Source: Candidatus Uhrbacteria bacterium (lineage in GTDB: Bacteria; Patescibacteriota; Patescibacteriia; UBA9934; GWF2-40-263). From it: DNA of 36,881 bases. The notes under the pieces are model-generated. The model was given only the letters and a program-made list of their open reading frames with translations, made no database searches and was not told the origin of the DNA. The position numbers and the translations under genes were made by a program. This document shows, in pieces, positions 17,419-33,862 of the stretch (its first letter is position 1; each line of letters begins with the position of its first letter). The stretch is from the NCBI GenBank assembly GCA_016205975.1, contig JACQSK010000015.1:76624-113504 (forward strand). Direction: 5' to 3'.

Positions 17419-18174
17419 ATGTCTCTTCTTGAAGCCATGACAGAAGACATGAAGGCTTCCATGAAAGCCAAAGACAGCGCAACGCTTTCCACGTTGCGTT
17501 TGTTGCTTTCTGCTTGCAAGAATAAAAAAATCGAACTCCTGCACGAGTTGTCTGACGCAGAAGTGCAGGACGTGGTGAAGACGCAAGTGAAGCAGCTCAA
17601 GGACTCCATCGTCTCGTTTGACGCCGGCGGACGCGCGGACATGGCGCAGAGCGCGCGCGCGGAGATTGCGGTGCTTGAGAAGTACCTGCCTGTACAGATG
17701 AGCGAGGAGGATCTGAGGGCGCTCGTGCAAAAAACGATTGCGGAGACCGGAGCCGCGAGCCAGGCGGACATGGGCCGCGTGATGGGCGCTACGCTCAAGG
17801 CCGCTCAGGGTCAGGCCGACGGCGCACGCGTGAAGGGGATCGTGATGCAGCTTTTGCCTGCCGTTGTCCTCGTCCTGGTTGGAACCTCCACGGCCTATCA
17901 GCCAGCGCTCGCGGCCATTCCTCTTGTCGCAGAAGATTTCGGCCTGGACGCCTCCACCATCGAGATGGCCCTGCGCCTGTTCCGCGTGCTGATCCTCTGG
18001 CTGGGCATTCCAGCTATTACGCTCATGCTGACCGGGGGGTTTGGGTATATGACGGCTTCCTCGCGTGACGAGCTCCATACGGAGGCCTGGGGAAAGATGG
18101 CACAAGGATTTTTTGCCACGATCATCGTGGCAGGACTTTTCGCCATTTCGACGATCATCCTCCAGCAGCTCTAA
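17419..18174 (+). CDS. yqeY: GatB/YqeY domain protein fused in-frame to a VirB2/TrbC-like pilin
   Basis: Residues 1-~145: DMKASMKAKD..LSTLRLL, EIAVLEKYLP.QMSEE, DMGRVMG, ADGARV. Then a signal-like segment (PALAA) and LTGGFGYMTA..D....AW.......II. Confidence 0.85.
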   Translation: MSLLEAMTEDMKASMKAKDSATLSTLRLLLSACKNKKIELLHELSDAEVQDVVKTQVKQLKDSIVSFDAGGRADMAQSARAEIAVLEKYLPVQMSEEDLRALVQKTIAETGAASQADMGRVMGATLKAAQGQADGARVKGIVMQLLPAVVLVLVGTSTAYQPALAAIPLVAEDFGLDASTIEMALRLFRVLILWLGIPAITLMLTGGFGYMTASSRDELHTEAWGKMAQGFFATIIVAGLFAISTIILQQL

Positions 18175-18185
18175 TAGAGAAAAAA

Positions 18186-18212
18186 TAAGACGAGCTCTCG
18201 CAGCTCGTTTTT
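18186..18212 (+). terminator. Terminator after yqeY-pilin
   Basis: AAGACGAGCT-CTCGC-AGCTCGTTTTT. Confidence 0.7.
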
Positions 18213-18218
18213 GCTATT

Positions 18219-18458
18219 GAGACCTCTGCAAAACTCGATGAGATTGCGATGCGCGGGGAAAGCCTCCGCCAAAGGCGGATTAGCCTTTGGCTGAAGCCGC
18301 CGAGACGTAGCGACAGCTACGTTGACCCTTCGATGTACTCAGGGTCAGTCTGAGCACAGTCGAAGACTGAGGCGGCGGCGGCGTAAAGCCGCGTGGCGGC
18401 CACGCCGCTCTACGCGGGGCCCCGCAAGTCGCAAGGTCGTGAGTTTTGCAGAGGTCTC
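18219..18458. mobile_element. MITE-like element with perfect 18-bp terminal inverted repeats
   Basis: GAGACCTCTGCAAAACTC (18219-18236) and GAGTTTTGCAGAGGTCTC (18441-18458). Non-coding interior full of hairpins. Same termini recur at 36571-36711. Confidence 0.7.
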
Positions 18459-18531
18459 TCTATCCACAGTTTTTTCTGCGCGCTTTTTTCCAAATGCGCT
18501 ACAATAGCTGCACGCGCACAGGCGTATCCTC

Positions 18532-20346
18532 ATGACAGAGAAGAGCACACAGAGACTCGCTTCCGGTTTCGTGCACGCGGTTGTGTTTGCCGTGGTGGCG
18601 TTTTCTGTTTTGGCGCTCTGGGCGGTCGCGCTGCCGGCCTTGGCGCAAACGAGCGCGCTGGAAACCGTTGGGTCTGTTTCAGGGTTGCCCACGGACAACA
18701 TCGCCATCATCATCGCCAGAATCATCCGGCAGTTTTTGATGGTCATCGGCATTCTGTTCACTGTGCTCATCGTGTACGCGGGGTTTTTGTACCTGACGGC
18801 GCGCGGAGAACCGGACCCCGTCAAAAAAGCAAAAAAGATTTTCCAGCAGTCCATCATCGGCCTCGTGATTATTTTTTCCGCCTACGGAATCGCCACGTTC
18901 ATCCTGGACCGTCTGCTCGATGCGGCGTTCTCGGGCTCGACCTCGGCGACGGCCGATGCGTACTCTGAACCGCTCTCCGGCTCCTTGGGCGGAGGCATTT
19001 TGGACGACCATTATCCCGAGCGCAACGCCACGGACATCCCGCGCAACACGCGTATCTTCGTTTCGTTCAAGGAAGCCATGAATCCCGCGAGCCTGATCGA
19101 AGGCTACGTGGACGACACGACCTCGACGGACCTCGACATCCAATCCGTCCTCATCTATCCCACGGCGGAGGGATCCGGTTCCGCACTCGCCCAAGACGAG
19201 GTCGTCGTGACGTACGACGATGCGTTTGAGATTTTCGTTTTCGATCCGGTCGAGTATTTGGGCTCGGCTGAGGAGGACACCAACTACACCGTGGTCCTCA
19301 CGACCGATATCGAAAAAGCCGACGGCAGCGCGGCCTTCTCCGGATCGTATGCGGACGGCTATGCCTGGACGTTTGAAGTGTCCACCGAGATCGACCTCAC
19401 ACCGCCAACCGTGACCTCCGTGGTGCCGATCCAGGATGCGGATGAGCCGCGCAATGTCACGATCGAAGTCAACTTCAGCGAGGCCATGGATCCGGTCGCG
19501 GGAACAGGCGCGTACGATGCAGTGCTGGGAGAGCTGTTTACGAATCTGTCCGCCTTCGATGAAGCGGGCGCCAACATCGAGGGGACATGGGAGATCGGGA
19601 ACGCCTATCGCACGATCGACTTCACGACCACGGACGCCTGCAGCGAGGATCCCTGCGGCGACACCATCTACTGTCTGCCTGGCAATGAGACGATCTCCGT
19701 GACCGCCAAGGCCGCCACGCTTAATGAAGACGAAGTCCCCCAGGGCGAACCTACGGGCGTTACCTTCGACGGTCTTGTGGACGCGGCCAGCAATTCGTTG
19801 GACGGTGACGGCGATGGCGATGCGTGCGGGTCGAGTTCGGACACGGTTGATTGCGCGGACGGCGATGAGGACGACGATTACGACTGGAGCTTCACGACCA
19901 CTGACGAGATCGAAGATACCGTTCCGCAGGTTGAGAGCGTGAACCCTGGCCTGGGGGAGGACGAGATCAGCCAGACCAACGACCTCACGGTTACATTCAA
20001 CACCTATCTCAAATCTTCCACCGTGGACTCGAGCAGCGTCTCGTTGTGGCCTGACCCGTGGTACGAGATGTGGTTTGCCGTGCGCAAGAGCAGCACCGGG
20101 GGCGCCACGCAGGTGGCGATCGAGCACCCGACGTTTGTGAGCACAGCGGACGGCGGTTGGGACTACTGGCCGGTTCTCACCCAAGACGTGAAGAGCACCT
20201 ACCAGATCTGCATGTACCCGGCGATCGGGCCGGACTCCTGCACCGAGTCCCGCTCCTCTCTCTATCCTTATTGTTGCGAAGGAACACCTTCCGCGAGCGC
20301 GTGCACGACGGACTCGGGAGAAGCCTTGCCGGATAATTCGGACTGA
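18532..20346 (+). CDS. Pilin (VirB2/TrbC-like)-anchored surface protein with Ig-like (Big_5/SbsA-type) domains
   Basis: Signal peptide ending PALAQ; IVYAGFLYLTARGEPDPVKKAKKIFQQSIIGLVII; repeated P....vPRN..I.V.FsEaM.P ... Y.W.F.T units. TACAAT at 18500. Confidence 0.85.
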   Translation: MTEKSTQRLASGFVHAVVFAVVAFSVLALWAVALPALAQTSALETVGSVSGLPTDNIAIIIARIIRQFLMVIGILFTVLIVYAGFLYLTARGEPDPVKKAKKIFQQSIIGLVIIFSAYGIATFILDRLLDAAFSGSTSATADAYSEPLSGSLGGGILDDHYPERNATDIPRNTRIFVSFKEAMNPASLIEGYVDDTTSTDLDIQSVLIYPTAEGSGSALAQDEVVVTYDDAFEIFVFDPVEYLGSAEEDTNYTVVLTTDIEKADGSAAFSGSYADGYAWTFEVSTEIDLTPPTVTSVVPIQDADEPRNVTIEVNFSEAMDPVAGTGAYDAVLGELFTNLSAFDEAGANIEGTWEIGNAYRTIDFTTTDACSEDPCGDTIYCLPGNETISVTAKAATLNEDEVPQGEPTGVTFDGLVDAASNSLDGDGDGDACGSSSDTVDCADGDEDDDYDWSFTTTDEIEDTVPQVESVNPGLGEDEISQTNDLTVTFNTYLKSSTVDSSSVSLWPDPWYEMWFAVRKSSTGGATQVAIEHPTFVSTADGGWDYWPVLTQDVKSTYQICMYPAIGPDSCTESRSSLYPYCCEGTPSASACTTDSGEALPDNSD

Positions 20347-20351
20347 GCCCC

Positions 20352-23300
20352 ATGAACCTTCCACATCGATCACGCTTCTTGGGCTCCCTCTTGGCACTCC
20401 TCATCAGTGTCGGTCTGTTTGTCGCTGTTCCGGTTCTGGCCCAGGACGTGGACCTGGAAAGTTTTGCCGAGCAAGCCGGGTTTTCGACTACGGCCGACAT
20501 CACGGTCATCATCGCACGGCTCGTGAGGACGGCGATCTCGTTTGTGGGCGTCGTGGCCGTGGTCTTCGTCGTCTATGGCGGCTTCATGTACATGACCGCC
20601 GGTGGCAATGCCGAGCGCGCGAAGAGCGCGAAGAAGATTTTAGTGAACGCGTTCATTGGAATCGTCCTCGTGTTCTCGTCTTTTGCGATCGTACAGTTTA
20701 TTTTAAACGCGCTTACCGAGGCTACGGGCGCCAGCGTGACGAGCGAGGACGGATCCGGAAGCTCGTTTAGCGGCGAGGGTTCGTCCTCGTCGTTCTATCT
20801 GCGCTCCGTGAATACAGACTGTGCGTCCGCCCTGCAAAACCTCGAACTGCAATTTGTCTTCTCCAAAAAAATAGACGAGGACACGGTCGCCGAGGGCATC
20901 ACGATTACGAAAGCTGGCGCGAGCTCGGCTGTGGAGGGCACCTTTGAGGTGTCGGGCAAGACCGTCACCTTCACGCCCGCCCAAGCCTGCAACGCTCCTT
21001 ACGAATCCTCCGCGTGTTTTGATGCGACAACCGACTACGCGATCGAGCTCGACTCCACCGTCCTGGAATCTTCCACCGGCTCCTCGCTCACCTGCAGCAC
21101 GTCCTATCCGTGTTCGTTTGATTTCACCACGGGCACAGGCGTAGACCTCGCGGGCCCGAGCGTCTCTATGGACGCGCCCGAGGACGGCGAGAGTTTGTAC
21201 GCCGGTTCCATCGAGCTTTTGAGCGCCGCCACCACGGACGACACGGGCGTCTCGACCGTTGACTTTTACGTGATCGATGACGACGAGGCGATTTACTCCT
21301 CGGGCGTGGACCTTTCGACCTTGGGCGAGCTCACGGGCGGCAACGCGGAAAACGTCTTCACTACGGACACGAACGAGGAGTGGAACACGAGCGGCTATAC
21401 CACCAACGAGACGTACTCGGTCTGGGCCACGGGGTCTGATTGCGCGGGCAACGACGACACGGCGAGCGCGGTGGACATCATGCTGCGCGCAAGCAGTTGT
21501 AACAACGAAGTGCAAGACGAAGACCTGGGCGAGGAGGACGTGGACTGCGGCGGCGATGACACGAGCGCGTATTACTGCGGCGCGTGCACCGGGGACGCGT
21601 GTACGGAAAACGCGGACTGCGGGAGCGGCCAGTGCGTGGAGGGAGTGTGCGTGGAGACGCCCAAGATCGAGTCAGTCACCGCCGGCGACGGCGCCGTGGG
21701 CAACCTCATCACCATAGCCGGGGAAGGCTTCGGCGACTCCGCAGGAACCGTGACGTTTTTGGGAACCGAGTCGGACGACGAGGTGACGGCCTCTGCCTAC
21801 GCGTGCAACAGTGAGACGCAATGGTCAGACGGGGAGATCGTCGTGCAGGTGCCAAGCGGGGCCGTGGACGGACCCATCGCAGTTACGACCGCGGACGCGA
21901 CTCAAGACCCGGACCGAACCGACGACGACTACGGTCCGTCCATTGCGGACTTCGATGTGAACCTGATCGAGCGCCCGGGGTTGTGTTCGCTTGATCCGGA
22001 TTCCGGCGCGAGCGCAACCTCCGTGGACGTCTACGGAAATAATTTCGGCGACGCGCAGGGGACCGCCGCCTTCTATTTCACGAACACGGAAGCTTCATCG
22101 TATGTCTCCTGGGAGTCCGACGCGCTCACCGTGGGCGTGCCCAACGTGAATGCCGGCGCCTATCGCGCGCAAGTCTTCACCGGCGACTATGTCTGCGTGG
22201 ACACGCTCTTGAACGCGACCGGCTCTACCTGTTCGAGCGACGACGATTGCGATGCAGACGCGGGGGAGAGCTGCGCACAGAGCTGGTGCTCGCAGACGCT
22301 TGGGTATTGTGAATTCGACGACGACTGCGGCGAGGACGGCGGTGAGTGCGCGTCCATCCGCGTGGGCGGCAACAAGCTGGCGTTCACGGTCGATGAGACG
22401 TCCTCGGAAACCACGCCGGTCATTTCCTCCATCGATTCCGGCTGGAGCGCGTGCTCGGGAGGTAGCGATGAGGGCGAGCGATGCAGCGAGGACAGCGACT
22501 GCGACAGCGGCGCGTGCGAGGATCAGGCCACCTGGGCGCCCAGCGGCCAGTACATCACCATTTACGGAACCAACTTTGGAACGTCCACGGGCTCCGTTTT
22601 TATAGAAAACGAATCGTTGGGATACACCGCTCTGGGTGACTCCGACTTTCCCGATGCCTGCGGGGAAGATTTTTGGCATGATACGCAGATCACCATCAAA
22701 GTCCCCGAGACGTATCAGAACGACGTGGACATAGAAACGGGCACGCACGCGCTCTCCATTGAACGCGCCGACGGCGGCGAGTCTGACGCGACGGACATGG
22801 TCATCTTGGACGACACGCCTGGCCCAGCCATCTGCGACCTGGATCCAAGCGCCGGACCGGTAGGGACCGAGGTGACGGTCTACGGCGAAAACTTCGGCAG
22901 CGCCGAGGGCGAGGTGGAGTTTTATTCGGAGCTTTCGTCCTCCTACACGCTGTGGGAAAACGATCAGGTCAGCGCGGCCGTTGTGCCGGAGGGCGCCGCC
23001 ACGGGCCCCGTGTACGTCATCGAATCCGTGAACGGGTACCCGTCCAACTCGGCTAATTTTGAAGTGGGAGACTGCAACGAGGATTCGAGCCTGTGCGAGG
23101 AAGGCGAATCCTGTTGCTCGGACGGCTCCTGTTCCACTTCCTGCGAAGAGGACGAAGACGTCGAGGCCCACTACGCCTTCAAGGTCTCAACGGGCATCAC
23201 GCCCAACACGCCCGAGGTCGTCGTGGAATGCGATGATAGCATTGCCTCGCCGTCTCCTTGGGAAGGCTGGAGTGAACCGGAAACCGTCTGTGTGAATGCA

Positions 23301-26300
23301 ACCGTGCACGTTGATTTTGACATGGACATGGACGTGAGCACGCTGACGGCCGCGAACATCACGGTAGAAAAATGTACGGCCGAGGATGAAGATGGCGCGT
23401 GTGAAACTTGGGAGGCGGTGAGCGCCTCCGACATCGAGACCAGTACGACCGGGTTCACCTGGACGCCGGTTTCGGATTTTGATGCGGACACGCGCCACCG
23501 TGTGACCTTGAACGGGAGCGGTGAGGAGGGAGCGATCCAAGCGGACGAAAGCGCGGGCGGCGGGTTCCTCGACGGTGACGAGGCCTGGGAGTTTACCACC
23601 AGCAGCAGCACGGACGCCTGCGAGGTAGGCGGCGCCAACGTGAGCCCGCTCACCGAATCGGTGGCAGAGACAGGGGACGTGAGCTATCTGGCCACGCTCA
23701 CCGCCGCGGACGACCAGTGCGTGACACTCTCCTGCAGCGGCTACACGGTTGATTGGGCGTCGGATTTCGACGGCGCGGTTATTGACACGTCGCGCCCCGG
23801 CGAAGGGATTTGTACCAACACCGTGGACGCGCAGAGCGAGACGGACGCTGGCGACCCAGCGATCATCACCGCCACGGTGACCGATGCCCAGGGCGATCCA
23901 TCGGGCGAGGGCGAGCTCACCATCAACTTTACCGATCCTGAGGTCGACGACTATTTTCCCGACTGCGCCTCAGCCTGCGTGAACGCCAAGCCGTGGGCCG
24001 AGTTTAACACCGACATGAGGGAGAGCACGCTCACGACTGCCTCGGTGACGCTCTGGGCCTGTGAGGATTCTTTGTGCGCGGCCTCCGAGCTCACGGAGGT
24101 TAGCTTCGTTTCCTCCATCGACTACGATGACTCCACGCAACGTGCAGAAATTGTTTTCACATCGGGCTCCACCATGAACGAGAGCGCCTGGTACAGAGTC
24201 GTCTTGGATGGCGACGCGATCACGGCTGCCAACGGCAACGTGCTTTCCGAGTCAGGCTCTAACTATGGATCTGATGCCAACCGGTATTTTGAAGATGACT
24301 TCTCGTGGGTGTTCAAGACAAAAGATTCCGACGTGAGCTGCGGCGTGGATTCGGTCGTGGTTTCGCCGCCCACGACCACGCTCACCGCCGTGGGCGACCG
24401 CGCCGAGTTTGACGCGACCGCGTACGGCGAGCCGGACGAGTGTTCCACTCAAGGCGAGGCCTTGCAGTCAGACTCGTTCACCTGGAGCGCGTGGGGGGCA
24501 GAGGACACGCCCAACGCCTTGGGTGACTCGACCGGTTCCTCCAGCGACCAAGATGACATCGTGGCGTACATGATTTTGGACGGCGAGATTGCGATGACCA
24601 ACGACCTGCCAGCGTACTGCTCGGGGTCCTGTTTGAACGTGGGTGCGAGCGTGACCACCAGTGACGGCGTGTGCGGCAACGGCAGCGAGGAGACGTATGA
24701 GGAGTGCGACGACGGCAATACAGATGACGGCGACGGCTGTTCCAGCTCCTGTTTGAACGAAGGCACGAGCGCGTGCACGGCAACGGTTGTGAACGGCTGC
24801 TGCGGGGATGGCAGCCGCGACTGGACGTCCAGCGCGGGCGGAGAAGATTGCGATGACGGCAACGCGACCTCGGGCGACGGCTGTTCTACCTCCTGCTTAA
24901 ACGAAGGCGCGCGCGCCGTGGGTGCGACCTGCGGGGACGCCACACGCGACTGGGTCACGGAAACCGGCGGCGAGGACTGCGATGACGACAACGGGGTGAG
25001 CGGCGACGGCTGTTCCAGCAACTGTTTGAAAGAAGGCTCTCAGGCGGCTGACGACGTCTATGCCATCTGCGGCAACGGCAAGGCGTGTACGGTTGATGCG
25101 AACTGCGGCGAGGACGAAACATGCAGCGATCTTGGGTCTTGCGTGGAGCCGGGAGAAGACTGCGATGACGGCAACGCGACCTCGGGCGACGGCTGTTCCT
25201 CTGCCTGTTTGAACGAAGGCACGAGCGTCTGCGCCACATCCACCGCAAGCGACTGCTGCGGAAACGGCACGCTGGAGACCGGCGAGGACTGCGACGGAGG
25301 TCCAGCAGGCGAGGACGGCTGTTCCTCCACCTGTTTGTTTGAAGGTTCCTCGTACGCCTACGCGACGCCGTCTTTCTGCGGCGACGGCGACACAGGAGAC
25401 GGCGAGGAGTGCGAGGCTTCTTCCTCATCCACCTTGACCGTTGGTGATTATTCCGTAGGCCAGATCGCCACGGGCGCGCCGACGGAAGTGGACGCGACAA
25501 GCGGTTATGCGATTTCCCGCGTGAGTGCAAGCGTGGAAGGGGAGAGCGACACGGCCACGCTCCAGCTTGAGTGCTCCTGTACGACCGATGCCTCCTGCGG
25601 GGAGGTCGCGACGCTGGGGTGCGGAGAGAGCAACTGCTGTTTTACGCGTCCCGGGGTGAGCGAGGCCTACCCGGCCGACAACACCGCGAGTCCTGGCGAC
25701 GGCTATTGTCGCAACAGCGCGATCTACGCGGTCTTCACGGGACTCATGGACGAGGCAACGTTTGACGGCAACCTGTATCTGGATTTGGAATCTATCGATG
25801 GGGTCACCGTGGGCGACGCAGACGCCTGTCCCGAGGGCTATACGACGAGCTCGACCACCGTGCGAGCCTCTTCACCGCTTGCTCGCGCATGGCAATGGCT
25901 GAAAGGCGCGGTGCTTGGCGTGTTCGGCCTGGATGCGAGCGCCTCCACGACCTTTGATTGTTTCCTGCCCGTGAGCTATGAGACGGTGACCGATGAGAGT
26001 GGAACCAGCGACACCGTGTACCTGCGCTACAGCTCCTTGCTTGAGGAGGACGGCATCTATCGTCTGGTGGTCGTCGGGGACGACACCTCGACGGACACGA
26101 CCTTTGACGGCGTCTTGAGTCAGGACGCAGCTGCGCTGTGCCTTGGCACGGATTGTTCTTCGGACACCTACGCGCAGTCGTTCTACGTGGGCTCGGAAGT
26201 CTGCGACCTGGATTCTGTGAGCGTGGAAGATGAGGGCGACGTGAACGCGGCTGAGTTTGAGTCTGCAAGCGAGGAGTACTTCAGCGCCACGGATGAGGAA

Positions 26301-29300
26301 CATTCCTTCGCGGCCACGCCCTTGACGCAACGCAGCGCGACGGCCGAGGAGATCTCGCCCATCGCCGGCGTGTACGAATGGAGCTGGTCCTGGACGTCTT
26401 CCGTGGACGATGAGAGCGAAGACGACATCGTTGGAATCTCAAGCGGCGACGCAGCCGATGACACGCAAACGCTCTACACGGCCGCAGGCAACGACGGCGA
26501 GGAAACCGTGATCGCGACCGCGACCGTCACGGTGGACGAGTGGAGCACGACTTCCACCGTGGGAGATACAACCACCGGCACGCTCGCGGTCGCCGCCTTG
26601 GTGTGCGAGAACCCCTGGCCGGCGCTCGACTCGAGCCTGGGCTTCCCGTACGTGGAAGACGTCACGCCGAGTTACTTTTCGTTTTTCTATTGCCGCGACG
26701 CAGGCGAAGATGGCACCGATGATGATCTGCCCGCCTTGGAGGATCCCATCGACGTGACCTCGCTTGCCTCCTCGGACATCATTCAAGAATTGATTTTCCA
26801 GGTGGAAGATACCTCTGACGCGATCGGCGTGCGCGTCATTCCCAACGAAGACTACCTCTCGCCCGGCGCTTGGGTGGAGGCGGCCGAGTTCACCGGCACG
26901 TTTGGGGAGACCGAGCTGGACGGCTATGCGGCCGTGGAGAGCGGCACAACTCTGTACGCCGCTGCGGCCAACCAGAGCGGCACGACCATCTATCCCAACA
27001 TCTATGTCGTCTCCTATAACGACAATGCCGGCGAGGATGCGAAAGATATTTTTTCCGAGATTTTGGAAAATTGGAAGTTTAACGCCAACGACGACGACGT
27101 CACGGACGTAAACTTTTGCTCCGATGGGACAGACTATGTGACCACCGATGACGGCGAGTACCTCTCATGCGACTGGGACGGCGATTGCGCGGAGACATGC
27201 GAGGACAGCGTGTGCTCGCTCACCGGTGAGGCCTGTTCGACGGATGCGGACTGCGAGCTTGCCTCCGGCGCGGGCGTGTGCGACGCAGAGAAAGCAAAAC
27301 TGACGCGCGACATGCGCCGCCTCACGGATCTGACCGACCTGACCGCGACGCTTCAGAGCTACGGCGAACAGAACGCCCACTGCGCGGTTACCACCGACCA
27401 GTCCTGCGATTCAGACGCCGAGTGCCCGGGAACCGAGGACTGTCTGCTTGGCTTCCCAGACGTGCAGTCCGGCACGTTCGTCCCCGCGCTCACCAACAGC
27501 GCCTGGGGCTCCTGGAACTCGGCATTCGCCAACGCGCTCGCCACCACGCCGCCAACGGATCCCACGAACGCCTTTTATGCGTGCGACGAGGACGGCTATG
27601 ACGCAGCCTCCTGCTGGAACGGCGAGGCTGGGACATTCATCTGTCCGGACAACTCGCACGTGTACGGCTACCAGAGCTCGGGCGGCATCGCCTATACGCT
27701 CTACGCGCAAATGGAAACGTCGGCAAACGCCGCTTGGCCTTACGATATAGATGCCGACTCGACAGACGAGGTTACCTTGGTTGTCGAGTATCCGTCGGGC
27801 GCGGCACCTTCCTCCACGCTCCAAGACGGCTTTACCGCCACGGCGCAGTTCTGCGACGGAGGCACATGGGGAGATTCGGAGATCTGCGGAGACGGCACGC
27901 AAGGTGTGAGCGAGGCGTGTGAGATCGGGGACACGAAAGCGAGTCCGTGCACGGACTCCTCCGGCGAGGCCGGCTGGATTTCTTCCGCGTGCGTGAGCGA
28001 CTGCTCCGACTATCAGACACAGACGCAAGCCGAGACCGCGGGCGCCGAGTGCGTGCCCTACGAGTGCGGCAACGGCGTGGTGGACTCAGGCGAGACGTGC
28101 GACGACGGAAGCTTGAACGGCACCTATGGCTATTGCGGCGACGATTGCACCGGCTATGACTTCTATTGCGGCGATGGCTATTTGGCGGGCACGGAGCAGT
28201 GCGACTGCGGCATCACCGGACTCTACGACTACACGGATGCCACCGCCGATGACACAGGTTCCTATGCGTATCTCTCAACCTGCGATGTTTCCAATGGCCA
28301 GTACTCGAGCGCCATCGGCGTGAGTTGCGCGTATAACTGCACGCAGCCAGGACTTGCCTGCGGCGACGGGGTCGTGAACGGTGCGGAGGCCTGCGACGGC
28401 GACTACGAAGAATGGGAAGGCGCGTTGTGTTCCGACGGCGTGACCGAATGCACCAGCGACTCTGATTGCGATGCGGGCGCGTGCGGGGACGGCGGGGCCG
28501 TGAGCGGGACCGGCGACGTGTGCACGGATTGGGAGGATGCAGGGGAAACATGCACGCAGAACAGCCAGTGCGATTCAGGATCCTGCGACGGGGGCGTGTG
28601 CGGGAGCGCCTCGGACGCCGGTGATGTGTGCATGGCTGACAGCGATTGCGAATCCGAGTCCTGCCCAGACTTCAACTACAGCCTCTACCGCTACCGAACG
28701 TGCGAGAGCGACTGCACCTGGCCATCGACATGGACCGGGCCCGTGGGCGGCGAGCAGATTTGCGGCAACGGAACCGTAGAGGGAGCCGAGGCCTGCGACG
28801 ACGGAAACTCATCCAACAACGACGCGTGTCTGAACACCTGCACGGAGAATGTCTGCGGAGACGATTACGTCGAGTCGGGCGTGGAGTCCTGCGACGACGG
28901 CGACGACAACGGCGAGGTGTGCGAGGCCGGCTATGAGGATACGTGCAATTACTGCAACGCGCAGTGCCAGTACAAGACGCGCTCCGGCGGCTACTGCGGA
29001 GACGAGGTCGTGAACGGCGATGAGGTCTGCGACGGGACGTACTCGACGGCCTTCATATGGTTTGATAGCGCCACGGGGGACACGCAGGGGAGCTGTGAGA
29101 CCTACGAGGATGATGAGGAAGTCGAGTCAGGCGGGGAAACGTACAGTTATACCTGCCGCTGGCTGGGCGTCTGTAACGGCGGGGCCGAACAGGGCGACGT
29201 CTGCACGCTTGATTACTCGACCTACGCCTCTTCCGGTTCCGTGGAACAGCTCGCCGCGTCGCGCGCGGGTAACGTGAACACCTGCAGAGGCGACGTCAAT

Positions 29301-30608
29301 GACGATACGGACGACGGCGAGTGTGTGCCGCCTGTATGCGCAGCCAATTGCGGTTCATCGTGTCCGTTCTCTTATGAGACGACGGGCCTGTTGGTCCAGA
29401 GCGAGCTTTCCGGCGCGTCGCAGACAGACACGGTGGCGCTCTACAGCTATCAAAACGCCGACGGCAACTCTCCGGACAACGCGGTCGTGTACGTGCCCGC
29501 CTGTACGGCCGCCACGAAAATCACCGCGGACGTGGACAACGACGAGGTGGTTCCGCCGGACGTGGACATTGTGTTTGTGACGGACTTGACGAGCTCTATG
29601 TCCTACGCTCCCGGAGGCAGTTCAGAAGCCGACCCGGGCGAGCGCAAGATCGATTATGTGATTGACGCCGCGAAGGACGCCGTGGAGGAACTGTTTGACG
29701 CCTACGACAGCTACGAAAACTCGACGCTCCAGATCGGGCTCGTGTCCTATACATCGAAGTATCGGGATGATTACTCGTTCGGCGATGCGGCTTACAATTT
29801 CTGTAACTCGACCAGCATCGGTGTGAGCCCGGACGGTGCCTGGCAAGACCAGCAGCTCGTGAATCAAGAGGACGGTGAGTCCGCGATCTTGGATGATCTC
29901 AGCTCCTATGCGGACTGCGTTTGCGAAACATGCCTCTCAGATGGGTCGAGCTCTGGCTCCACGCCCACCTACCGCGGAGTACAAAAAGCCATCAGTGCGC
30001 TCGAGGACTCCGAGGCGGACGTGAAGATTGTGGTTCTGTTGACCGACGGCGACGTGGATTGGAATGAGTCGTTCCAGCAGACGGGAGACGCCGATGATTG
30101 CGCCTTCGAGAGCAAATCCTATCAGGGCCAAGAGTATGAGGGCTCCGAGGCCTGCATCGCCGACATCGCCGACGATCTGATCGAGGATTCGGATATCCTT
30201 TTCTATACAGCCGCTGTCACCACCAGCAGCAGGCGGCAAGGCTATACGGCGCACATGTCGAGCAACACATGCGCCTGGGATGAGGATGAGGAAGGCATCA
30301 GCTCCACAGACGACTGTTCAGGCAACTACGCCTTCGCGGCCGAGGATGAAGAAGGCATCGAAGAGATGTACGACGCGATCGTGGATGCGATCCTGGGCAC
30401 CAGCGTAACCTTCACGACCACCGACGAGAGCGGCACGACCTACACGACAACTGGAGGCGTCGAGGCTGGCACGGACGTGACTCTTCCGTTCCCTGATGGT
30501 TTTATCTGTGACTCCAGTGAGCAGACCATCCCGTTGCGCAACAGCTTCTATGGTGAAGGGACGATGCAGTTCTCTGACCTGGAGCTTACCTACTGCCCCT
30601 ACCAGTAA
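20352..30608 (+). CDS. Giant 3418-aa pilin-anchored acidic Cys-rich surface protein (Ig/Big_5, IPT/TIG, CGNG..E.CDDGN repeats, pilin-like insert, vWA)
   Basis: Uninterrupted ORF. Signal PVLAQ; VYGGFMYMTAGGNAERAKSAKKIL; four (I/V)T(I/V).G..FG...W.D-type IPT units; DUF4215-like Cys repeats; DIVFVTDLTSSM...TPT...VVLLTDG. Confidence 0.9.
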   Translation: MNLPHRSRFLGSLLALLISVGLFVAVPVLAQDVDLESFAEQAGFSTTADITVIIARLVRTAISFVGVVAVVFVVYGGFMYMTAGGNAERAKSAKKILVNAFIGIVLVFSSFAIVQFILNALTEATGASVTSEDGSGSSFSGEGSSSSFYLRSVNTDCASALQNLELQFVFSKKIDEDTVAEGITITKAGASSAVEGTFEVSGKTVTFTPAQACNAPYESSACFDATTDYAIELDSTVLESSTGSSLTCSTSYPCSFDFTTGTGVDLAGPSVSMDAPEDGESLYAGSIELLSAATTDDTGVSTVDFYVIDDDEAIYSSGVDLSTLGELTGGNAENVFTTDTNEEWNTSGYTTNETYSVWATGSDCAGNDDTASAVDIMLRASSCNNEVQDEDLGEEDVDCGGDDTSAYYCGACTGDACTENADCGSGQCVEGVCVETPKIESVTAGDGAVGNLITIAGEGFGDSAGTVTFLGTESDDEVTASAYACNSETQWSDGEIVVQVPSGAVDGPIAVTTADATQDPDRTDDDYGPSIADFDVNLIERPGLCSLDPDSGASATSVDVYGNNFGDAQGTAAFYFTNTEASSYVSWESDALTVGVPNVNAGAYRAQVFTGDYVCVDTLLNATGSTCSSDDDCDADAGESCAQSWCSQTLGYCEFDDDCGEDGGECASIRVGGNKLAFTVDETSSETTPVISSIDSGWSACSGGSDEGERCSEDSDCDSGACEDQATWAPSGQYITIYGTNFGTSTGSVFIENESLGYTALGDSDFPDACGEDFWHDTQITIKVPETYQNDVDIETGTHALSIERADGGESDATDMVILDDTPGPAICDLDPSAGPVGTEVTVYGENFGSAEGEVEFYSELSSSYTLWENDQVSAAVVPEGAATGPVYVIESVNGYPSNSANFEVGDCNEDSSLCEEGESCCSDGSCSTSCEEDEDVEAHYAFKVSTGITPNTPEVVVECDDSIASPSPWEGWSEPETVCVNATVHVDFDMDMDVSTLTAANITVEKCTAEDEDGACETWEAVSASDIETSTTGFTWTPVSDFDADTRHRVTLNGSGEEGAIQADESAGGGFLDGDEAWEFTTSSSTDACEVGGANVSPLTESVAETGDVSYLATLTAADDQCVTLSCSGYTVDWASDFDGAVIDTSRPGEGICTNTVDAQSETDAGDPAIITATVTDAQGDPSGEGELTINFTDPEVDDYFPDCASACVNAKPWAEFNTDMRESTLTTASVTLWACEDSLCAASELTEVSFVSSIDYDDSTQRAEIVFTSGSTMNESAWYRVVLDGDAITAANGNVLSESGSNYGSDANRYFEDDFSWVFKTKDSDVSCGVDSVVVSPPTTTLTAVGDRAEFDATAYGEPDECSTQGEALQSDSFTWSAWGAEDTPNALGDSTGSSSDQDDIVAYMILDGEIAMTNDLPAYCSGSCLNVGASVTTSDGVCGNGSEETYEECDDGNTDDGDGCSSSCLNEGTSACTATVVNGCCGDGSRDWTSSAGGEDCDDGNATSGDGCSTSCLNEGARAVGATCGDATRDWVTETGGEDCDDDNGVSGDGCSSNCLKEGSQAADDVYAICGNGKACTVDANCGEDETCSDLGSCVEPGEDCDDGNATSGDGCSSACLNEGTSVCATSTASDCCGNGTLETGEDCDGGPAGEDGCSSTCLFEGSSYAYATPSFCGDGDTGDGEECEASSSSTLTVGDYSVGQIATGAPTEVDATSGYAISRVSASVEGESDTATLQLECSCTTDASCGEVATLGCGESNCCFTRPGVSEAYPADNTASPGDGYCRNSAIYAVFTGLMDEATFDGNLYLDLESIDGVTVGDADACPEGYTTSSTTVRASSPLARAWQWLKGAVLGVFGLDASASTTFDCFLPVSYETVTDESGTSDTVYLRYSSLLEEDGIYRLVVVGDDTSTDTTFDGVLSQDAAALCLGTDCSSDTYAQSFYVGSEVCDLDSVSVEDEGDVNAAEFESASEEYFSATDEEHSFAATPLTQRSATAEEISPIAGVYEWSWSWTSSVDDESEDDIVGISSGDAADDTQTLYTAAGNDGEETVIATATVTVDEWSTTSTVGDTTTGTLAVAALVCENPWPALDSSLGFPYVEDVTPSYFSFFYCRDAGEDGTDDDLPALEDPIDVTSLASSDIIQELIFQVEDTSDAIGVRVIPNEDYLSPGAWVEAAEFTGTFGETELDGYAAVESGTTLYAAAANQSGTTIYPNIYVVSYNDNAGEDAKDIFSEILENWKFNANDDDVTDVNFCSDGTDYVTTDDGEYLSCDWDGDCAETCEDSVCSLTGEACSTDADCELASGAGVCDAEKAKLTRDMRRLTDLTDLTATLQSYGEQNAHCAVTTDQSCDSDAECPGTEDCLLGFPDVQSGTFVPALTNSAWGSWNSAFANALATTPPTDPTNAFYACDEDGYDAASCWNGEAGTFICPDNSHVYGYQSSGGIAYTLYAQMETSANAAWPYDIDADSTDEVTLVVEYPSGAAPSSTLQDGFTATAQFCDGGTWGDSEICGDGTQGVSEACEIGDTKASPCTDSSGEAGWISSACVSDCSDYQTQTQAETAGAECVPYECGNGVVDSGETCDDGSLNGTYGYCGDDCTGYDFYCGDGYLAGTEQCDCGITGLYDYTDATADDTGSYAYLSTCDVSNGQYSSAIGVSCAYNCTQPGLACGDGVVNGAEACDGDYEEWEGALCSDGVTECTSDSDCDAGACGDGGAVSGTGDVCTDWEDAGETCTQNSQCDSGSCDGGVCGSASDAGDVCMADSDCESESCPDFNYSLYRYRTCESDCTWPSTWTGPVGGEQICGNGTVEGAEACDDGNSSNNDACLNTCTENVCGDDYVESGVESCDDGDDNGEVCEAGYEDTCNYCNAQCQYKTRSGGYCGDEVVNGDEVCDGTYSTAFIWFDSATGDTQGSCETYEDDEEVESGGETYSYTCRWLGVCNGGAEQGDVCTLDYSTYASSGSVEQLAASRAGNVNTCRGDVNDDTDDGECVPPVCAANCGSSCPFSYETTGLLVQSELSGASQTDTVALYSYQNADGNSPDNAVVYVPACTAATKITADVDNDEVVPPDVDIVFVTDLTSSMSYAPGGSSEADPGERKIDYVIDAAKDAVEELFDAYDSYENSTLQIGLVSYTSKYRDDYSFGDAAYNFCNSTSIGVSPDGAWQDQQLVNQEDGESAILDDLSSYADCVCETCLSDGSSSGSTPTYRGVQKAISALEDSEADVKIVVLLTDGDVDWNESFQQTGDADDCAFESKSYQGQEYEGSEACIADIADDLIEDSDILFYTAAVTTSSRRQGYTAHMSSNTCAWDEDEEGISSTDDCSGNYAFAAEDEEGIEEMYDAIVDAILGTSVTFTTTDESGTTYTTTGGVEAGTDVTLPFPDGFICDSSEQTIPLRNSFYGEGTMQFSDLELTYCPYQ
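24670..25420 (+). repeat. Coding repeats of the CG(N/D)G...E(D/E)CDDGN..(S/D)GDGCS..CL.EG unit
   Basis: About five units. A 38-nt stretch TGCGATGACGGCAACGCGACCTCGGGCGACGGCTGTTC is identical at 24849-24886 and 25161-25198. Confidence 0.85.
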
Positions 30609-30612
30609 CCTT

Positions 30613-31377
30613 ATGGACTTCCAAGACCAACCGATAACAACAGCGCGCTCCATTCCCTGGAAGCCAGTGGCGATCGCCGCGGGCGGGTTGCTTGTGGCAG
30701 TGCTTGTGGTCATCCTGGCGGCGCGCCTCCTGCGCGGGGACGAGGCCACGCGCTCGCTCTTGCAAGAGGCTGAAGAGCTCGCAACGCCCGCGCTCGTGGC
30801 GGATTTTGCCGCGGACCATGGCTCCCTCGAGGCCTGTGAGTTGCTTGAAAGCGAGCAAGCGAGGGATAATTGTGCTTGGGGCGTTGCGCGCAGTCTTTCT
30901 GATGCGTCCCTGTGTGGCGCGCTGACGGATCCAGCCGCGGCCATGCGTTGTGCCGATGGTATTGTCGAGGCGTTGGCAATCGCAAATCTCGACGTGAGCG
31001 CGTGCGAGGCGATTCAAGACGGCGAGCGCGAGGCTCGGTGCATAGCGCTCCTCTCGGAGCCCGTGACCAGCGAAAATTGTCTTGAGCGCGCAACCGAGGC
31101 GTGCGACGACATTCGTCTTTACGAAGAAGCTGTAGCCACGCTCGACGCGCTTTTATGCCGCGAGATCGTTGAGGAGGGTCGGCGAGAATCCTGCGAGGAA
31201 GCCGTCGAGGATCGCTTGGACGTGCTGACAGAGGATGATGACGAAGACGGACTGACCAACGAAGAAGAGGCGCGCTACGGAACCGACCCGCAGAGTCCTG
31301 ATACCGACGACGACGGCTACCTGGACGGCGCGGAAATCGATGCTGGATATAATCCTAACGGCCCCGGCCGTCTTTAA
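30613..31377 (+). CDS. Membrane-anchored protein with helical Cys repeats and a C-terminal TSP3-like Ca-binding repeat
   Basis: N-terminal TM; repeated C..I....R..C units; DDDEDGLTNEEE..YGTDP..PDTDDDGYLDG.E...GYNP. Start placed at ATG 30613. Confidence 0.8.
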   Translation: MDFQDQPITTARSIPWKPVAIAAGGLLVAVLVVILAARLLRGDEATRSLLQEAEELATPALVADFAADHGSLEACELLESEQARDNCAWGVARSLSDASLCGALTDPAAAMRCADGIVEALAIANLDVSACEAIQDGEREARCIALLSEPVTSENCLERATEACDDIRLYEEAVATLDALLCREIVEEGRRESCEEAVEDRLDVLTEDDDEDGLTNEEEARYGTDPQSPDTDDDGYLDGAEIDAGYNPNGPGRL

Positions 31378-31386
31378 TCTTTCTCT

Positions 31387-32007
31387 ATGTTTGAAGATGT
31401 TAAAAAAGAACCTGAAGACATTTTTTCCGAGTCCGACGCGTCGGCTCCGCAAGTGGTTCCTCCGACCGAGCCGCCCCCAGGGCCCGCTCCCGTCATGAGT
31501 CCCATGGCACAGCGTCCCGCGCCCGCGCGCCGGTCGTTCCCCTGGAAACCGGCTTTACTGGTTGTCGCCATTGTGGTCGTGGTCGGCGCCGCGTTTTATC
31601 TCTCGGTTCAGATTTTGCGTTCCAAGACGCCCGTAACTCCGGAGCCGCCAGCGCAGGACGAATCCGCGGCCGCCCCTGTCTCCAACTCGGGTGCGGAGGA
31701 AGAGGAAACATCCGTCCCATCCGACCTCTCTGACCAAGGGGCTGAAGAAGAAAAAAAACCATCCTCGGCTGACACGGATAAAGACGGCCTGACCAACGAC
31801 GAGGAAGAAGCGCTTGGTACCAGCCCGCGTGCGGCCGACACGGACGGCGACGGTTTGTTTGATCTGGAGGAAGTCAGGACATGGGAGACGAATCCGTTGA
31901 ATCCCGACACGGACGGCGACGGCTATTTGGATGGGGAGGAAGTGAGCGGCGGGTATAATCCAAACGGTGAGGGCGCGCTGCGTGAAGCGCCGACAGAATC
32001 TGATTAG
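31387..32007 (+). CDS. Membrane-anchored protein with tandem TSP3-like (DxDxDG) repeats
   Basis: Pro-rich N-terminus, TM, then DTDKDGLTNDEE, DTDGDGLFDLEE, DTDGDGYLDGEEV..GYNP. Confidence 0.85.
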   Translation: MFEDVKKEPEDIFSESDASAPQVVPPTEPPPGPAPVMSPMAQRPAPARRSFPWKPALLVVAIVVVVGAAFYLSVQILRSKTPVTPEPPAQDESAAAPVSNSGAEEEETSVPSDLSDQGAEEEKKPSSADTDKDGLTNDEEEALGTSPRAADTDGDGLFDLEEVRTWETNPLNPDTDGDGYLDGEEVSGGYNPNGEGALREAPTESD

Positions 32008-32011
32008 CCCT

Positions 32012-33037
32012 ATGAGCGACACGACTCCACAGCTTCAACAGCCCGCTGAACAATCGCAGAAGCCTGCAGGGATCGAGGCGCGCGTGTTTACGATGCCCGA
32101 GCGGTACCGTCATGGCGCGGAAGGGAAGGTGCACGAGCCTGAGACGAAAGGGCCAAGAGCGCCCGTGGAGATTAAAACGCCGTCGGTTCCCTCCGCGCCC
32201 GCCTTGCCGCCGAGGCCACCTGCGCGTCAGAAAAAAATATCGAGCACAAAAAAGATTCTCCTCCTGGGCGCGGTCGTCTTGTTGGCGCTTGGCGTGGGTG
32301 GAACCATTTTGGTTTCAAGCGTTGAGGAACAGGGGCAGGAGGAGATCGTCACGGCCCCCGTCGTGAGACCAGAACCTCAACCGACGCCCGAGCCTGAACC
32401 CGAGCCTGAACCTGCAGGGGAACCCGAGCCGGAGCCGGAGGTGTTTCCCGTTGAGGTCCTGCCCGGTACAGACTCGGACTCCGACGGACTCTCTGACACG
32501 GAGGAGAGAACCATCTATGGCACGGACGTGCGTTTGCCTGACTCAGACACGGACGGATTCCTGGACGGCAACGAAGTGTTCCATCGGTATAATCCCGCGG
32601 CGCTGGGAACGCTCCTTGCCGCTGGAGTCGTGACGACGTGGCAAGCACAGACGCCTGAGGGCGAGGCGGGAGTCCAGAGAGTGGAATACGCGTTTGATTA
32701 TCCGACCGTTTGGGAGATGGAGTTCCTGGACGGGGAGCTCGTGTTGGACGCGCAGATCGGCGAGGGGTTCCGCATCTCGTTTGTCGAAAAGCAAGTAAGC
32801 CTTGCCGCCTGGGCCAGTGAGAACGTAGTGCTCGAGGATTCCATTTTTGGCACGACGAAGAACGGACTCCAGCTGTTGCAATCGAGTAACCAGCTTGAGG
32901 CGTATGTGGATCTCGGTTTGGCCGTGATGATCGTGAAATACGACACGGGGGTCAAGGCGCGCGTGGATTATTTGCAGACCATGCAGATGATGTTGAACAG
33001 CGTGAGGGTGGTGAACGGGTCGGACGAGCCGCTATGA
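32012..33037 (+). CDS. Membrane-anchored protein: PE-repeat stalk, TSP3-like repeats, PsbP-like C-terminal domain
   Basis: TM, (PE)n at about 32370-32440, DSDSDGLSDTEE, DSDTDGFLDGNEV..YNP, then YAFDYPTVW...MMLNSVRV. Start placed at ATG 32012. Confidence 0.8.
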   Translation: MSDTTPQLQQPAEQSQKPAGIEARVFTMPERYRHGAEGKVHEPETKGPRAPVEIKTPSVPSAPALPPRPPARQKKISSTKKILLLGAVVLLALGVGGTILVSSVEEQGQEEIVTAPVVRPEPQPTPEPEPEPEPAGEPEPEPEVFPVEVLPGTDSDSDGLSDTEERTIYGTDVRLPDSDTDGFLDGNEVFHRYNPAALGTLLAAGVVTTWQAQTPEGEAGVQRVEYAFDYPTVWEMEFLDGELVLDAQIGEGFRISFVEKQVSLAAWASENVVLEDSIFGTTKNGLQLLQSSNQLEAYVDLGLAVMIVKYDTGVKARVDYLQTMQMMLNSVRVVNGSDEPL

Positions 33038-33471
33038 TCCGTGCCGAACTGAACCAGTCACAACTCAGGGGCGGCCAGCGCCTCCCGGCGCGTTTGGTGG
33101 CGCGGACGCTGCGCGAAGTGGAGCGAGAGCTCCGTCTGAAAAAAGACGTCGCCTTCTCGGTTGCCTTTGTCTCCCCGGCGCAGATGCGAAAGCTCAATCG
33201 CGCCTGGCGAGGGAAAGATCGCGTGACGGACGTCTTGTCGTTTGAGCTTGCGGGTGAACAAACGTTCGGAGAGGTCCTCATTTCTTATGACCAAGCGCGC
33301 CGACAGGCTCGAGAGCGAGGGGCTGGGGCAAGAGAGGAGGTGCTGTTCCTTCTGGTGCATGGCATCCTGCATCTGTTTGGCTATGACCATGAGCGCAGCA
33401 AGGACGCCAAGCGCATGTTCCCGCTCCAGGCGAAGATTCTCACGCGCTTAGGTATTGACCCACGACTATGA
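33034..33471 (+). CDS. ybeY: rRNA maturation RNase YbeY
   Basis: LNRAWRGKDRVTDVLSF, GEVLIS, HGILHLFGYDH. Confidence 0.96.
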   Translation: MIRAELNQSQLRGGQRLPARLVARTLREVERELRLKKDVAFSVAFVSPAQMRKLNRAWRGKDRVTDVLSFELAGEQTFGEVLISYDQARRQARERGAGAREEVLFLLVHGILHLFGYDHERSKDAKRMFPLQAKILTRLGIDPRL

Positions 33472-33842: not shown

Positions 33843-33862
33843 GGTTATACTGATGAGCGACT

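Follow-up and report, generated by a model that had tools for sequence, protein, structure and literature searches.

The stretch of DNA considered here (the window; 36,881 nucleotides (nt) long, to whose positions all coordinates refer) is part of contig C5 in a Candidatus Uhrbacteria assembly of 938 kb in 26 contigs that is 94% complete. Between positions 17419 and 33037 it carries six open reading frames (ORFs), labelled g1 to g6 (Table 1), among which g2 and g3 join a pilin-like hairpin to adhesin-like domains and g4 to g6 are single-pass membrane proteins with TSP3 repeats. An earlier note on this DNA, made from the letters alone, had proposed here an operon of three pilin-module genes with giant adhesin cargo and calcium-binding partners; its architecture for g2-g6 stands, its separate first pilin gene and its operon end at 33037 do not. 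The closest named relative of g2, at 74% identity, lies on a contig of a Candidatus Uhrbacteria bacterium, which puts this ultra-small bacterium in the Patescibacteria/Parcubacteria group. The sequencing runs that hold the stretch are six, all of DNA, from groundwater metagenomes of two studies; four of the six may be its source. Cultured Patescibacteria live attached to other cells, and the phylum makes up a large share of bacterial diversity.

Pilin modules, adhesin-like cargo and putative calcium-repeat partners

Table 1. Features of the locus, followed by the spacer element and the flanking genes
Feature	Position	Strand	Description	Evidence
g1	17419..18174	+	251 aa; YqeY domain (residues 5-146) and divergent pilin-like hairpin (~143-251)	Pfam YqeY, E 8.9e-44
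g2	18532..20346	+	Modular pilin-like protein, 604 aa	T4SS_pilin 35.2 bits; Big_5 E 5e-18
g3	20352..30608	+	Giant modular pilin-like protein, 3418 aa	Pfam domain scans, whole and in pieces
g3 C-terminal head	29565..30608	+	vWA with MIDAS-type residues and variable inserts, then conserved beta-rich end piece	Pfam VWA
g4	30613..31377	+	254 aa, single-pass, transmembrane segment 19-40	TSP3_bac 35.8 bits
g5	31387..32007	+	206 aa, single-pass, transmembrane segment 56-77	TSP3_bac 53.3 bits
g6	32012..33037	+	341 aa, single-pass, transmembrane segment 82-103	TSP3_bac 19 bits, below cut-off 25
MITE-like element	18219..18459	.	~240 nt, 29-nt terminal inverted repeats; outside the apparatus	Arms repeated in genome
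lepB	15050..15712	+	Signal peptidase I	NCBIfam TIGR02227 136.5 bits, cut-off 47
ybeY, dagK, ftsA, ftsZ	33034..36504	+		Pfam YbeY, DAGK_prokar, FtsA with SHS2_FTSA, Tubulin with FtsZ_C

Both g2 and g3 open with a signal peptide, spanning residues 1-38 in g2, where A-L-A precedes Q39, and residues 1-30 in g3. The leader is followed in each by a T4SS_pilin hairpin, at residues 56-124 of g2 (nt 18697-18903) and 49-117 of g3 (nt 20496-20702). Both proteins exceed the Pfam cut-off of T4SS_pilin (PF18895, 26.6 bits): g3 scores 31.8 bits as a whole protein and 39.4 bits on its N-terminal piece, and in the genome-wide scan g2 and g3 reach 40.6 and 40.0 bits. Additionally, g2 resembles the NCBIfam Mbov_0395 pilin-like family of a mycoplasma integrative and conjugative element (23.3 bits, cut-off 40), and two precomputed orthologue entries carry the TrbC/VirB2 family (PF04956).

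An alignment of 34 modules, comprising 13 orthologues of g2, 13 of g3, four g1 modules and four free pilins of the same genome, brings out a common plan: a leader that ends in A-x-A, a long first helix that closes in a Y-G-G-F-x-W-M-T-A-type motif, a basic loop and a hydrophobic second helix. Across modules and free pilins alike, G73, G84, A100 and G110 are invariant or nearly so, and the g2 module is 43-50% identical to one free pilin of its own genome. The AlphaFold2 model of g2 residues 1-145 places helices at 57-89 and 94-143, joined by a loop rich in K/R, with a predicted local distance difference test score (pLDDT) of 81 overall and above 90 over the hairpin. The modules are accordingly not the generic transmembrane hairpins that the earlier note had named as the outcome that would overturn its proposal: two of the three pass PF18895, and all align with the free pilins of their own genome. 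A tree built from these 34 modules resolves the g1 clade alone and does not separate g2, g3 and the free pilins, and thus gives no order for the fusions.

Type IV pilins, which the type IV pilus machine assembles, have a signal peptide of class III. A signal peptide of that class, with Glu at mature position 5, is not conserved in g2 and g3, whose leaders end in A-x-A followed by Q. The sizes of g2 and g3 (Table 1) lie outside the range of stand-alone pilins (~100-150 aa), as does the ORF of which the g1 module is the tail.

The module belongs to a large family. A profile built from it matches 87,681 representative proteins at E<=1e-3, and among the best 150 of these are many proteins that consist of 2-17 tandem hairpins (P0046-P0059 and others). 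One of them, P0048 (1775 aa), holds 11 stretches of T4SS_pilin by Pfam and 17 by the module profile, and passes TrbC/VirB2 with 83.8 bits, which ties the module family to VirB2. From their sequence, tandem hairpins of this kind would fit a topology with both hairpin ends on one side of the membrane. Pilin polyproteins built in this way go unmentioned in the available text of the papers on type IV secretion systems (T4SS) of Patescibacteria.

A comparison of the parts of g2-g6 over 13 genomes shows that the hairpin is the best-conserved part of g2 and of g3. Its mean pairwise identity is 0.48 and 0.51, respectively, as compared with 0.43 and 0.40 for the ectodomains and 0.22 and 0.30 for the signal peptides. 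The plain transmembrane segments of g4, g5 and g6 behave in the opposite manner, with identities of 0.23, 0.35 and 0.29, each below that of its own ectodomain. A hairpin conserved beyond plain anchors must engage in specific contacts, and these would be to fellow hairpins or to the machinery that handles pilins.

Behind the hairpin, g2 continues with three immunoglobulin (Ig)-like stretches of Big_5 and ends in a cysteine-rich domain. The cargo of g3 runs from Big_5 and Big_7 through TIG (~437-904) and further Ig-like domains to DUF4215-type cysteine-rich blocks, a middle part and, at the far end, the vWA head. The DUF4215-type repeats form two blocks, at ~1441-1700 and ~2512-2830 (DUF4215 37.7 bits when scanned in pieces), and seven repeat cores of the form CG[ND]G...C[DE]xG are present; conservation is even along the full length. 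With 176 Cys and 650 D+E against 80 K+R, the residue counts firmly support the acidic and cysteine-rich make-up described for this protein. About 800 residues of the middle part have no domain match, and a Protein Atlas search with residues 1750-2500 gave no usable hit. The cargo originally read from the translations, Ig domains in g2 and Ig, IPT, cysteine-repeat and vWA domains in g3, was recovered by Pfam as Big_5, Big_7, TIG, DUF4215 and VWA, and all the families for which a domain scan had been suggested (T4SS_pilin, Big_5, TIG, DUF4215, VWA and TSP3_bac) have a match in the locus.

The distal vWA tip is well supported. Scanned by itself, the C-terminal piece of g3 scores 27.4-27.7 bits with VWA (PF00092, cut-off 23.8), and the family is matched in 10 of 13 g3 orthologues, with a best E of 2.5e-16. 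Residues of the type of the metal-ion-dependent adhesion site (MIDAS) are kept in the alignment of the heads, namely D-x-T-x-S (D-L-T-S-S is seen), a T, and L-T-D-G. A search of PDB sequences with the vWA piece of g3 itself (phmmer) found nothing and the orthologue profile was needed: this profile matches 65 solved vWA chains at E<=0.1, the best named among them including RrgA (2ww8), the pilus adhesins of group B Streptococcus (GBS; 3tw0/3txa), PilB of S. sanguinis (7b7p; E 2.5e-8 for its vWA) and Mfa5 (6tnj). The inserts of the vWA are the least conserved part of g3, with identities of 0.18-0.26 as compared with 0.3-0.6 elsewhere.

The three proteins that follow the giant are, as had been read from the sequence, single-pass membrane proteins with D-x-D-x-D-G repeats, and g4 and g5 pass TSP3_bac (PF18884, cut-off 25 bits). 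The first, g4, begins with a short cytoplasmic N-terminus; its ectodomain is helical and has 10 Cys at conserved spacings, and the protein further carries a TSP3 repeat and closes in G-Y-N-P-x-G. In g5, a conserved cytoplasmic M-F-D-D...E-P-E-D-I-F motif and a proline-rich stretch come first; an acidic linker then leads to three TSP3 repeats, and the protein ends in G-Y-N-P-N-G. The third protein, g6, conserves the motif M-P-x-x-Y-R on the cytoplasmic side. A Pro/Glu linker leads to two TSP3-type repeats, with D-x-D-x-D-G columns that do not vary among 21 orthologues, and the C-terminus is an alpha/beta domain of ~140 aa. Most of this domain is modelled by AlphaFold2 with pLDDT >90, and the fold search gave for it at best a weak match, to a PsbP-like fold (E 0.011). 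An identity of g6 as an FtsQ-like division protein was considered and rejected, since it has no support from Pfam and that weak match is the best fold found. TSP3_bac has seven matches in the whole genome, five of which fall in g4-g6, so that the repeat is specific to the locus in this genome. Weak NCBIfam matches (E 0.003-0.007, far below the cut-offs and confined to the repeats) link g4 and g6 to CglD and g4 to MtsD.

Conservation and genomic setting

The genes stand on the + strand in the order lepB, hisS, rpsU, g1, a 357-nt spacer, g2-g6, ybeY, dagK, ftsA and ftsZ. From g2 onward the successive spacings are 5, 4, 9, 4, -4, -4, 20 and 83 nt. Hence, the gaps of 4-9 nt remarked from 18532 onward hold for g2-g6, but the tight series does not stop at 33037 and continues with -4, -4 and 20 nt into ybeY, dagK and ftsA. 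A promoter scan gave no promoter-like site near g2, and the terminator-like sites of a terminator scan were not above those of shuffled sequences, so that spacing and synteny carry the operon claim.

Each of 41 genomes of the order, which cover 7 families and 33 genera, has a single full-length orthologue of g2, and in most of the cases listed it is directly followed by an ORF of 2400-3660 aa with a pilin start. Synteny was compared at 12 loci from 12 genomes of the order and at 10 loci that each represent another family of the class, in 22 other genomes altogether. Within the order, all 12 loci show one fixed succession of g2, g3, three TSP3 genes, ybeY and dagK, with ftsA or ftsZ next wherever the compared stretch reaches, and at the 10 other loci this block recurs with either two or three TSP3 genes. 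The block yqeY-g2-g3-TSP3 genes-ybeY-dagK-ftsA is thus found at 22 of 22 loci, in 17 families of one class of Patescibacteria, which answers the doubt, raised at the outset, whether these genes occur together in other genomes. In a sample of the class, g2 matches at E<=1e-26 that reach beyond the hairpin occur in 64 of 120 genomes; in a sample of the phylum (E<=1e-20), the g2 type is found in 8 of the 9 genomes that belong to its own class or order and in 0 of 191 sampled genomes of other classes. Conserved synteny together with class-limited spread point to an old, class-specific unit that is vertically inherited among housekeeping genes. Judged from this gene order, the locus is not mobile and belongs to a housekeeping block ending in ftsA-ftsZ, not to a T4SS island.

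In this regard, no member of the VirB4/VirD4 families is found among the scanned ORFs of the window, as had already been remarked. The genome holds nine matches to PF18895: three in the window, five in an array on another contig (C6:3966-6273) and one on contig C23. The C23 protein, of 517 aa (L002 6731-8284, - strand), carries its T4SS_pilin hairpin mid-protein, at residues 141-202, and adjoins a DsbA-like thioredoxin, a possible source of disulfides for cysteine-rich cargo.

VirB4 was not found in the assembly with PF03135, with phmmer searches using six Patescibacterial VirB4 proteins or with a profile of those six. The same profile finds VirB4 in 40 of 40 relatives at ~900 bits. Because all of these relatives have the gene, we read its lack here as an assembly gap, in which the VirB4 of this genome most likely lies. 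In the relatives, VirB4, g2-g3 and the free pilin array occupy three separate loci. Of the link to VirB4-like ATPases that had been suggested for checking, the co-occurrence is therefore seen in 40 of 40 relatives, but the two are never linked, and the gene is not found in the genome under study. Matches of AAA_10/DUF87 in this assembly were discarded as VirB4 candidates, as they comprise only FtsK and two coupling-protein-like ATPases. The latter are both TrwB/VirD4-type and stand in housekeeping contexts: one, 848 aa long, lies between cysS and dnaX (L003 7772-10318, C4); the other, of 728 aa and with zinc-ribbon domains, adjoins secDF (L031 8009-10195, C14). TrbL/VirB6 (PF04610) gave no match in the genome by Pfam, and no more sensitive search was made.

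The pattern [LIV]Px[TSA]G (LPxTG-like) occurs nowhere in g1-g6, in agreement with the lack of a sortase motif originally described, and sortase (PF04203) was not found in the 94%-complete genome; an anchor of another kind is therefore needed. No RTX family turned up in the Pfam scans of the locus proteins, although no search was aimed at the RTX adhesins of type I secretion systems, and no exporter genes are found among the window ORFs scanned.

The hairpin of g1 differs from the other two in its context. The first pilin module had been taken as a gene of its own starting at 17845; that ATG is, however, internal, at residue 143 of the ORF 17419-18174, in which the YqeY domain is joined to the hairpin through a signal-like segment in the same frame and with no stop codon. 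What was described as three consecutive pilin-module genes consequently comes down to two that pass the cut-off, g2 and g3, and an in-frame tail of yqeY that falls below it. An uninterrupted YqeY-hairpin fusion is present in 19 of the 41 genomes, namely this one and 18 of 24 relatives of family f1, and spans many genera of that family; none of 16 genomes from the other families of the order has it. Being conserved within family f1 and absent from the others, the fusion is real and derived. Its module aligns with the other modules and forms a clade of its own (support 100/100), and a G-rich stretch lies just upstream of the internal ATG. The product of g1 could be a YqeY tethered to the membrane, a free pilin released by cleavage, or a pilin whose synthesis begins at the internal start.

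Anchor, pilus subunit or envelope strut

At roughly even confidence, we favour the explanation that the locus is a class-specific, vertically inherited cell-surface attachment apparatus in which the hairpin serves mainly as a membrane-resident anchor. In such a model, Sec would export g2 and g3 and signal peptidase I would cut their AxA leaders, the lepB product being a candidate for this enzyme by its context, outside the operon; lepB ends 2.1 kb before 17845, in keeping with the distance of 2 kb given earlier. The VirB2-type hairpin would then lie in the cytoplasmic membrane, its two helices joined by a short basic loop on the cytoplasmic side and both of its ends outside. This topology is suggested by the AxA leader, the basic loop, the two helices, the topology of VirB2 pilins and the positive-inside rule; with both ends of the hairpin outside, the entire C-terminal cargo would be extracellular. 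Here g2 would be a short Ig stalk, and g3 a very long, acidic, disulfide-rich chain of Ig, TIG and cysteine repeats with a metal-dependent MIDAS vWA head at its far end, presumably stabilised by calcium and disulfides. The TSP3 proteins g4-g6 would sit alongside as calcium-binding membrane partners. A complex prediction for residues 39-300 of g2 with 31-345 of g3, each run with a 19-row alignment, scored 0.00 against a mark of 0.32 and gave no verdict.

The hairpin would thus be a pilin held unpolymerised, its sequence being kept because it still packs with pilin hairpins or with pilin-handling machinery, and the length of the g3 fibre would let it span the distance to a partner cell with no pilus needed. 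Our leaning towards a membrane-resident role comes from the length of the fibre, the lack of linkage to T4SS genes, the three membrane partners and the position of the hairpin behind a cytoplasmic YqeY domain in family f1, an arrangement that suits use as an anchor. The earlier interpretation, which had left it between assembly tags and membrane anchors, is supported in part. The pilin relation, the vWA tip and the cysteine-rich make-up are retained from it; the yqeY extension, the housekeeping setting of the locus and the VirB4 of all 40 relatives had escaped it.

Several observations weigh against this model. Concerning the hairpin, g1 scores 18.4 bits with T4SS_pilin in the window scan and 21.7 bits in the genome scan, under the cut-off in both, and TrbC/VirB2 is matched by g2 with 22.0 bits (E 1.9e-4, model positions 12-98 of 98) and by g3 with 17.0 bits, below its cut-off of 27.9. 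Against the PDB, Foldseek found for the hairpin model only generic helical hairpins, none of them at E<=0.001, and phmmer of the hairpin against PDB sequences gave nothing relevant; since a fold search is blind to the difference between a pilin and another hairpin, the pilin assignment rests on sequence profiles. Concerning the head, VWA stays below its cut-off in the scan of whole g3 (19.8 bits), the match of g3 itself spans only model positions 1-57 of 174, and one orthologue (L021) appears to be without a vWA. Class-level homologues of g3 often cease to align near residue 2894, which indicates that the vWA head is not universal. Concerning the whole, the runs that hold the stretch are DNA runs only, no RNA run being listed among them; contact of g4-g6 with g2 or g3 is a proposal; the conservation of hairpin residues shared with free pilins fits just as well a protein that is still polymerised as a pilin; and the linkage to ftsA-ftsZ could indicate a role in the envelope or in division, not in adhesion.

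Published work gives the frame in which these readings can be compared. Patescibacterial VirB2-like pilins are described, in the available text, as small, arranged in arrays and often near virB4 (PMC10633639, PMC12102498), and the T4SS together with VirB2-like pilins as essential in one species tested genetically (Wang et al., 2023; PMC10633639). In the available part of their phylum-wide survey of these T4SS, Quinonero-Coronel et al. (2025; PMC12102498) state that adhesins such as PrgB went undetected. The available text of these two papers does not mention fused cargo on VirB2-like pilins, and the supplementary tables of the 2025 survey, which lay outside the search, might list these proteins among the VirB2 matches. 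Likewise, the literature searched, supplementary tables not covered, describes no VirB2-type pilin fused to an adhesin. VirB2-like pilins themselves are known; what appears to be new here is that VirB2-like pilin modules with adhesin cargo are fixed in a class-wide operon.

To judge by the available descriptions, the modules share with the VirB2-like arrays of Southlakia epibionticum and Nanosynbacter lyticus the Pfam families PF18895/PF04956, the phylum, a Sec-type leader, a two-helix hairpin and the presence of several divergent paralogues per genome. They differ from those arrays in that g2 and g3 carry 480 or 3300 residues of extracellular domains and adjoin the ftsA-ftsZ housekeeping block, apart from VirB4 and the array. 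A precedent of another kind is S. sanguinis PilB, a type IV pilin onto which a vWA module is grafted (PMC8179133; PDB 7b7p). As far as its available account goes, PilB resembles g3 in joining a pilin module to a C-terminal adhesin module, a vWA with MIDAS, and differs in having ~400-500 aa and one module. The filament system is also unrelated: g2 and g3 have leaders of the Sec-type AxA kind and lack a Glu at position 5 of the mature protein. T4SS membrane subunits that bear a very large hydrophilic extension are known in the extended VirB6 proteins of Rickettsiales, such as Anaplasma VirB6-4 with 4322 aa (PMC7648143; reviewed in PMC12857230). In the parts of these sources that were available, however, the subunit is a polytopic VirB6 and not a VirB2 pilin, the bacteria are diderm and themselves intracellular, and the extensions are not chains of Ig, TIG and vWA domains.

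RrgA, the GBS adhesins and Mfa5 likewise hold an adhesin-type vWA at the far end of an Ig-like stalk; they are anchored through LPXTG and sortase or through lipoprotein and fimbrial means, in contrast with the N-terminal pilin hairpin of g3. Calcium-binding D-x-D-x-D-G repeats in surface proteins recall CglD and MtsD, thrombospondin-type-3 repeat proteins from the adhesion and cohesion systems of Myxococcus, from which g4-g6 differ in architecture and in envelope type. CglD works with a vWA adhesin. Pam pili were set aside as irrelevant to the hairpin, being described in the available text as an Ig-fold donor-strand system (PMC13278184).

Among the alternatives to a membrane-resident anchor, the strongest takes g2 and g3 as modular minor pilins: a VirB4 machine would extract their hairpins and build them into a filament of free pilins, at its tip or base. 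We hold this as a tentative possibility. It would account for the hairpin being the best-conserved part of both proteins, for the residues that it shares with free pilins and for the closeness of one free pilin to the g2 module. A strongly conserved VirB4 in every relative, along with free pilin arrays, would provide the means, and PilB, whose structure 7b7p is among the best matches of the g3 head, offers a precedent in another filament type (PMC8179133, in its available part). The lack of an adhesin such as PrgB in the T4SS survey, as far as the available text reports, leaves such a role vacant (PMC12102498). Nevertheless, g2-g3 are unlinked to VirB4 or to a pilin array in any genome examined, VirB4 was not found in the assembly itself, and a cargo of 3300 aa is too big to be borne by every subunit, so that incorporation into a pilus would at most be rare. 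Additionally, the literature, in its available part, holds no solved VirB2-type filament for the phylum. As VirB4 and g2-g3 are both universal in the order, their co-occurrence cannot separate an anchor from a pilus subunit.

It is possible, though less likely than not, that g2 and g3 represent the first modular pilins of VirB2 type and that the T4SS pilus of this class carries covalently fused adhesins, one a short Ig stalk and the other a giant fibre with vWA at its tip. If true, this would supply the adhesin that T4SS surveys could not find and would mean that conjugative-type pilins, like type IV pilins, can be converted to a display function; in that case, the proteins of several tandem hairpins would be segments of a pilus joined in advance.

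A role away from adhesion altogether is unlikely in our view. Under it, the proteins would be spacers or struts of the envelope at the wall zone or the division site, co-expressed with ftsA-ftsZ, and the motifs of g5 and g6 would link them to the division machinery. The fixed place upstream of ybeY-dagK-ftsA-ftsZ at 22 of 22 loci, the universal, single-copy occurrence of the locus in the order and the conserved short cytoplasmic N-terminal motifs of g5 and g6 are consistent with this idea, as is the even conservation of g3, unlike that of many fast-evolving, host-specific adhesins. Gene order by itself, however, is weak evidence of shared function, and g6 has no FtsQ/POTRA-like match, its best fold being the weak PsbP-like one. 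Moreover, the head of g3 is an adhesin-type vWA with MIDAS, nearest to pilus-tip adhesins, and the variability of its inserts is as expected of a ligand-binding tip.

Finally, it is very improbable that the N-terminal modules are ordinary signal and hairpin anchors whose likeness to pilins stems from hydrophobic composition, since, even though helical hairpins yield no specific fold matches, PF18895 also matches weakly in 11 of 14 control genomes (above cut-off in one) and the g1 module stays under the cut-off, this idea is largely refuted by the curated cut-off passed by g2 and g3, the alignment, with Gly/Ala columns and a basic loop in common with free pilins, and an identity far above that of the plain anchors of the same genomes, to which the independent sub-threshold matches to TrbC/VirB2 and the mycoplasma pilin-like family add.

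The locus offers candidates conserved class-wide in which a pilin module is joined to an adhesin-type head, together with a defined set of partners in the three calcium-repeat proteins. The questions it raises are whether a cargo-bearing VirB2-type hairpin is an anchor or a polymer subunit, what ligand the vWA binds, and whether its inserts can serve as predictors of host range. A practical consequence is that counts of "VirB2 pilins" made by hidden Markov models only include very large surface proteins.

The g1-g2 spacer and neighbouring features

The 357-nt gap between g1 and g2 contains an inserted inverted-repeat element with a predicted hairpin of -149 kcal/mol. Its arms recur at C23:75079-75210 and C17:13423-13553 with 93-97% identity, there ~130 nt apart, and the element looks like a member of a small family resembling miniature inverted-repeat transposable elements (MITEs). 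In a relative of the same genus the spacer is only ~65 nt long and the element seems to be missing. A structured RNA gene in the spacer was considered and rejected, as there is no Rfam match and the repeated inverted-repeat element is found instead. In the relative G010, an ORF of 346 aa that is reverse-transcriptase-like as judged by eye (L025 17977-19017, - strand) lies just upstream of g2, in the place held by yqeY in other relatives.

Two minor points concern the annotation of the flanks. The listed starts of ftsZ (GTG; 35206-36504) and rpsU (TTG; 17099-17404) are probably too far upstream; relatives align only from about residue 27 (ftsZ) and residue 23 (S21). At 36644-36734 on the - strand, ARAGORN calls a tRNA-Cys of 91 nt with its anticodon at position 33, which the Rfam tRNA model does not report at its gathering score; either the tRNA is unusual or the call is wrong.

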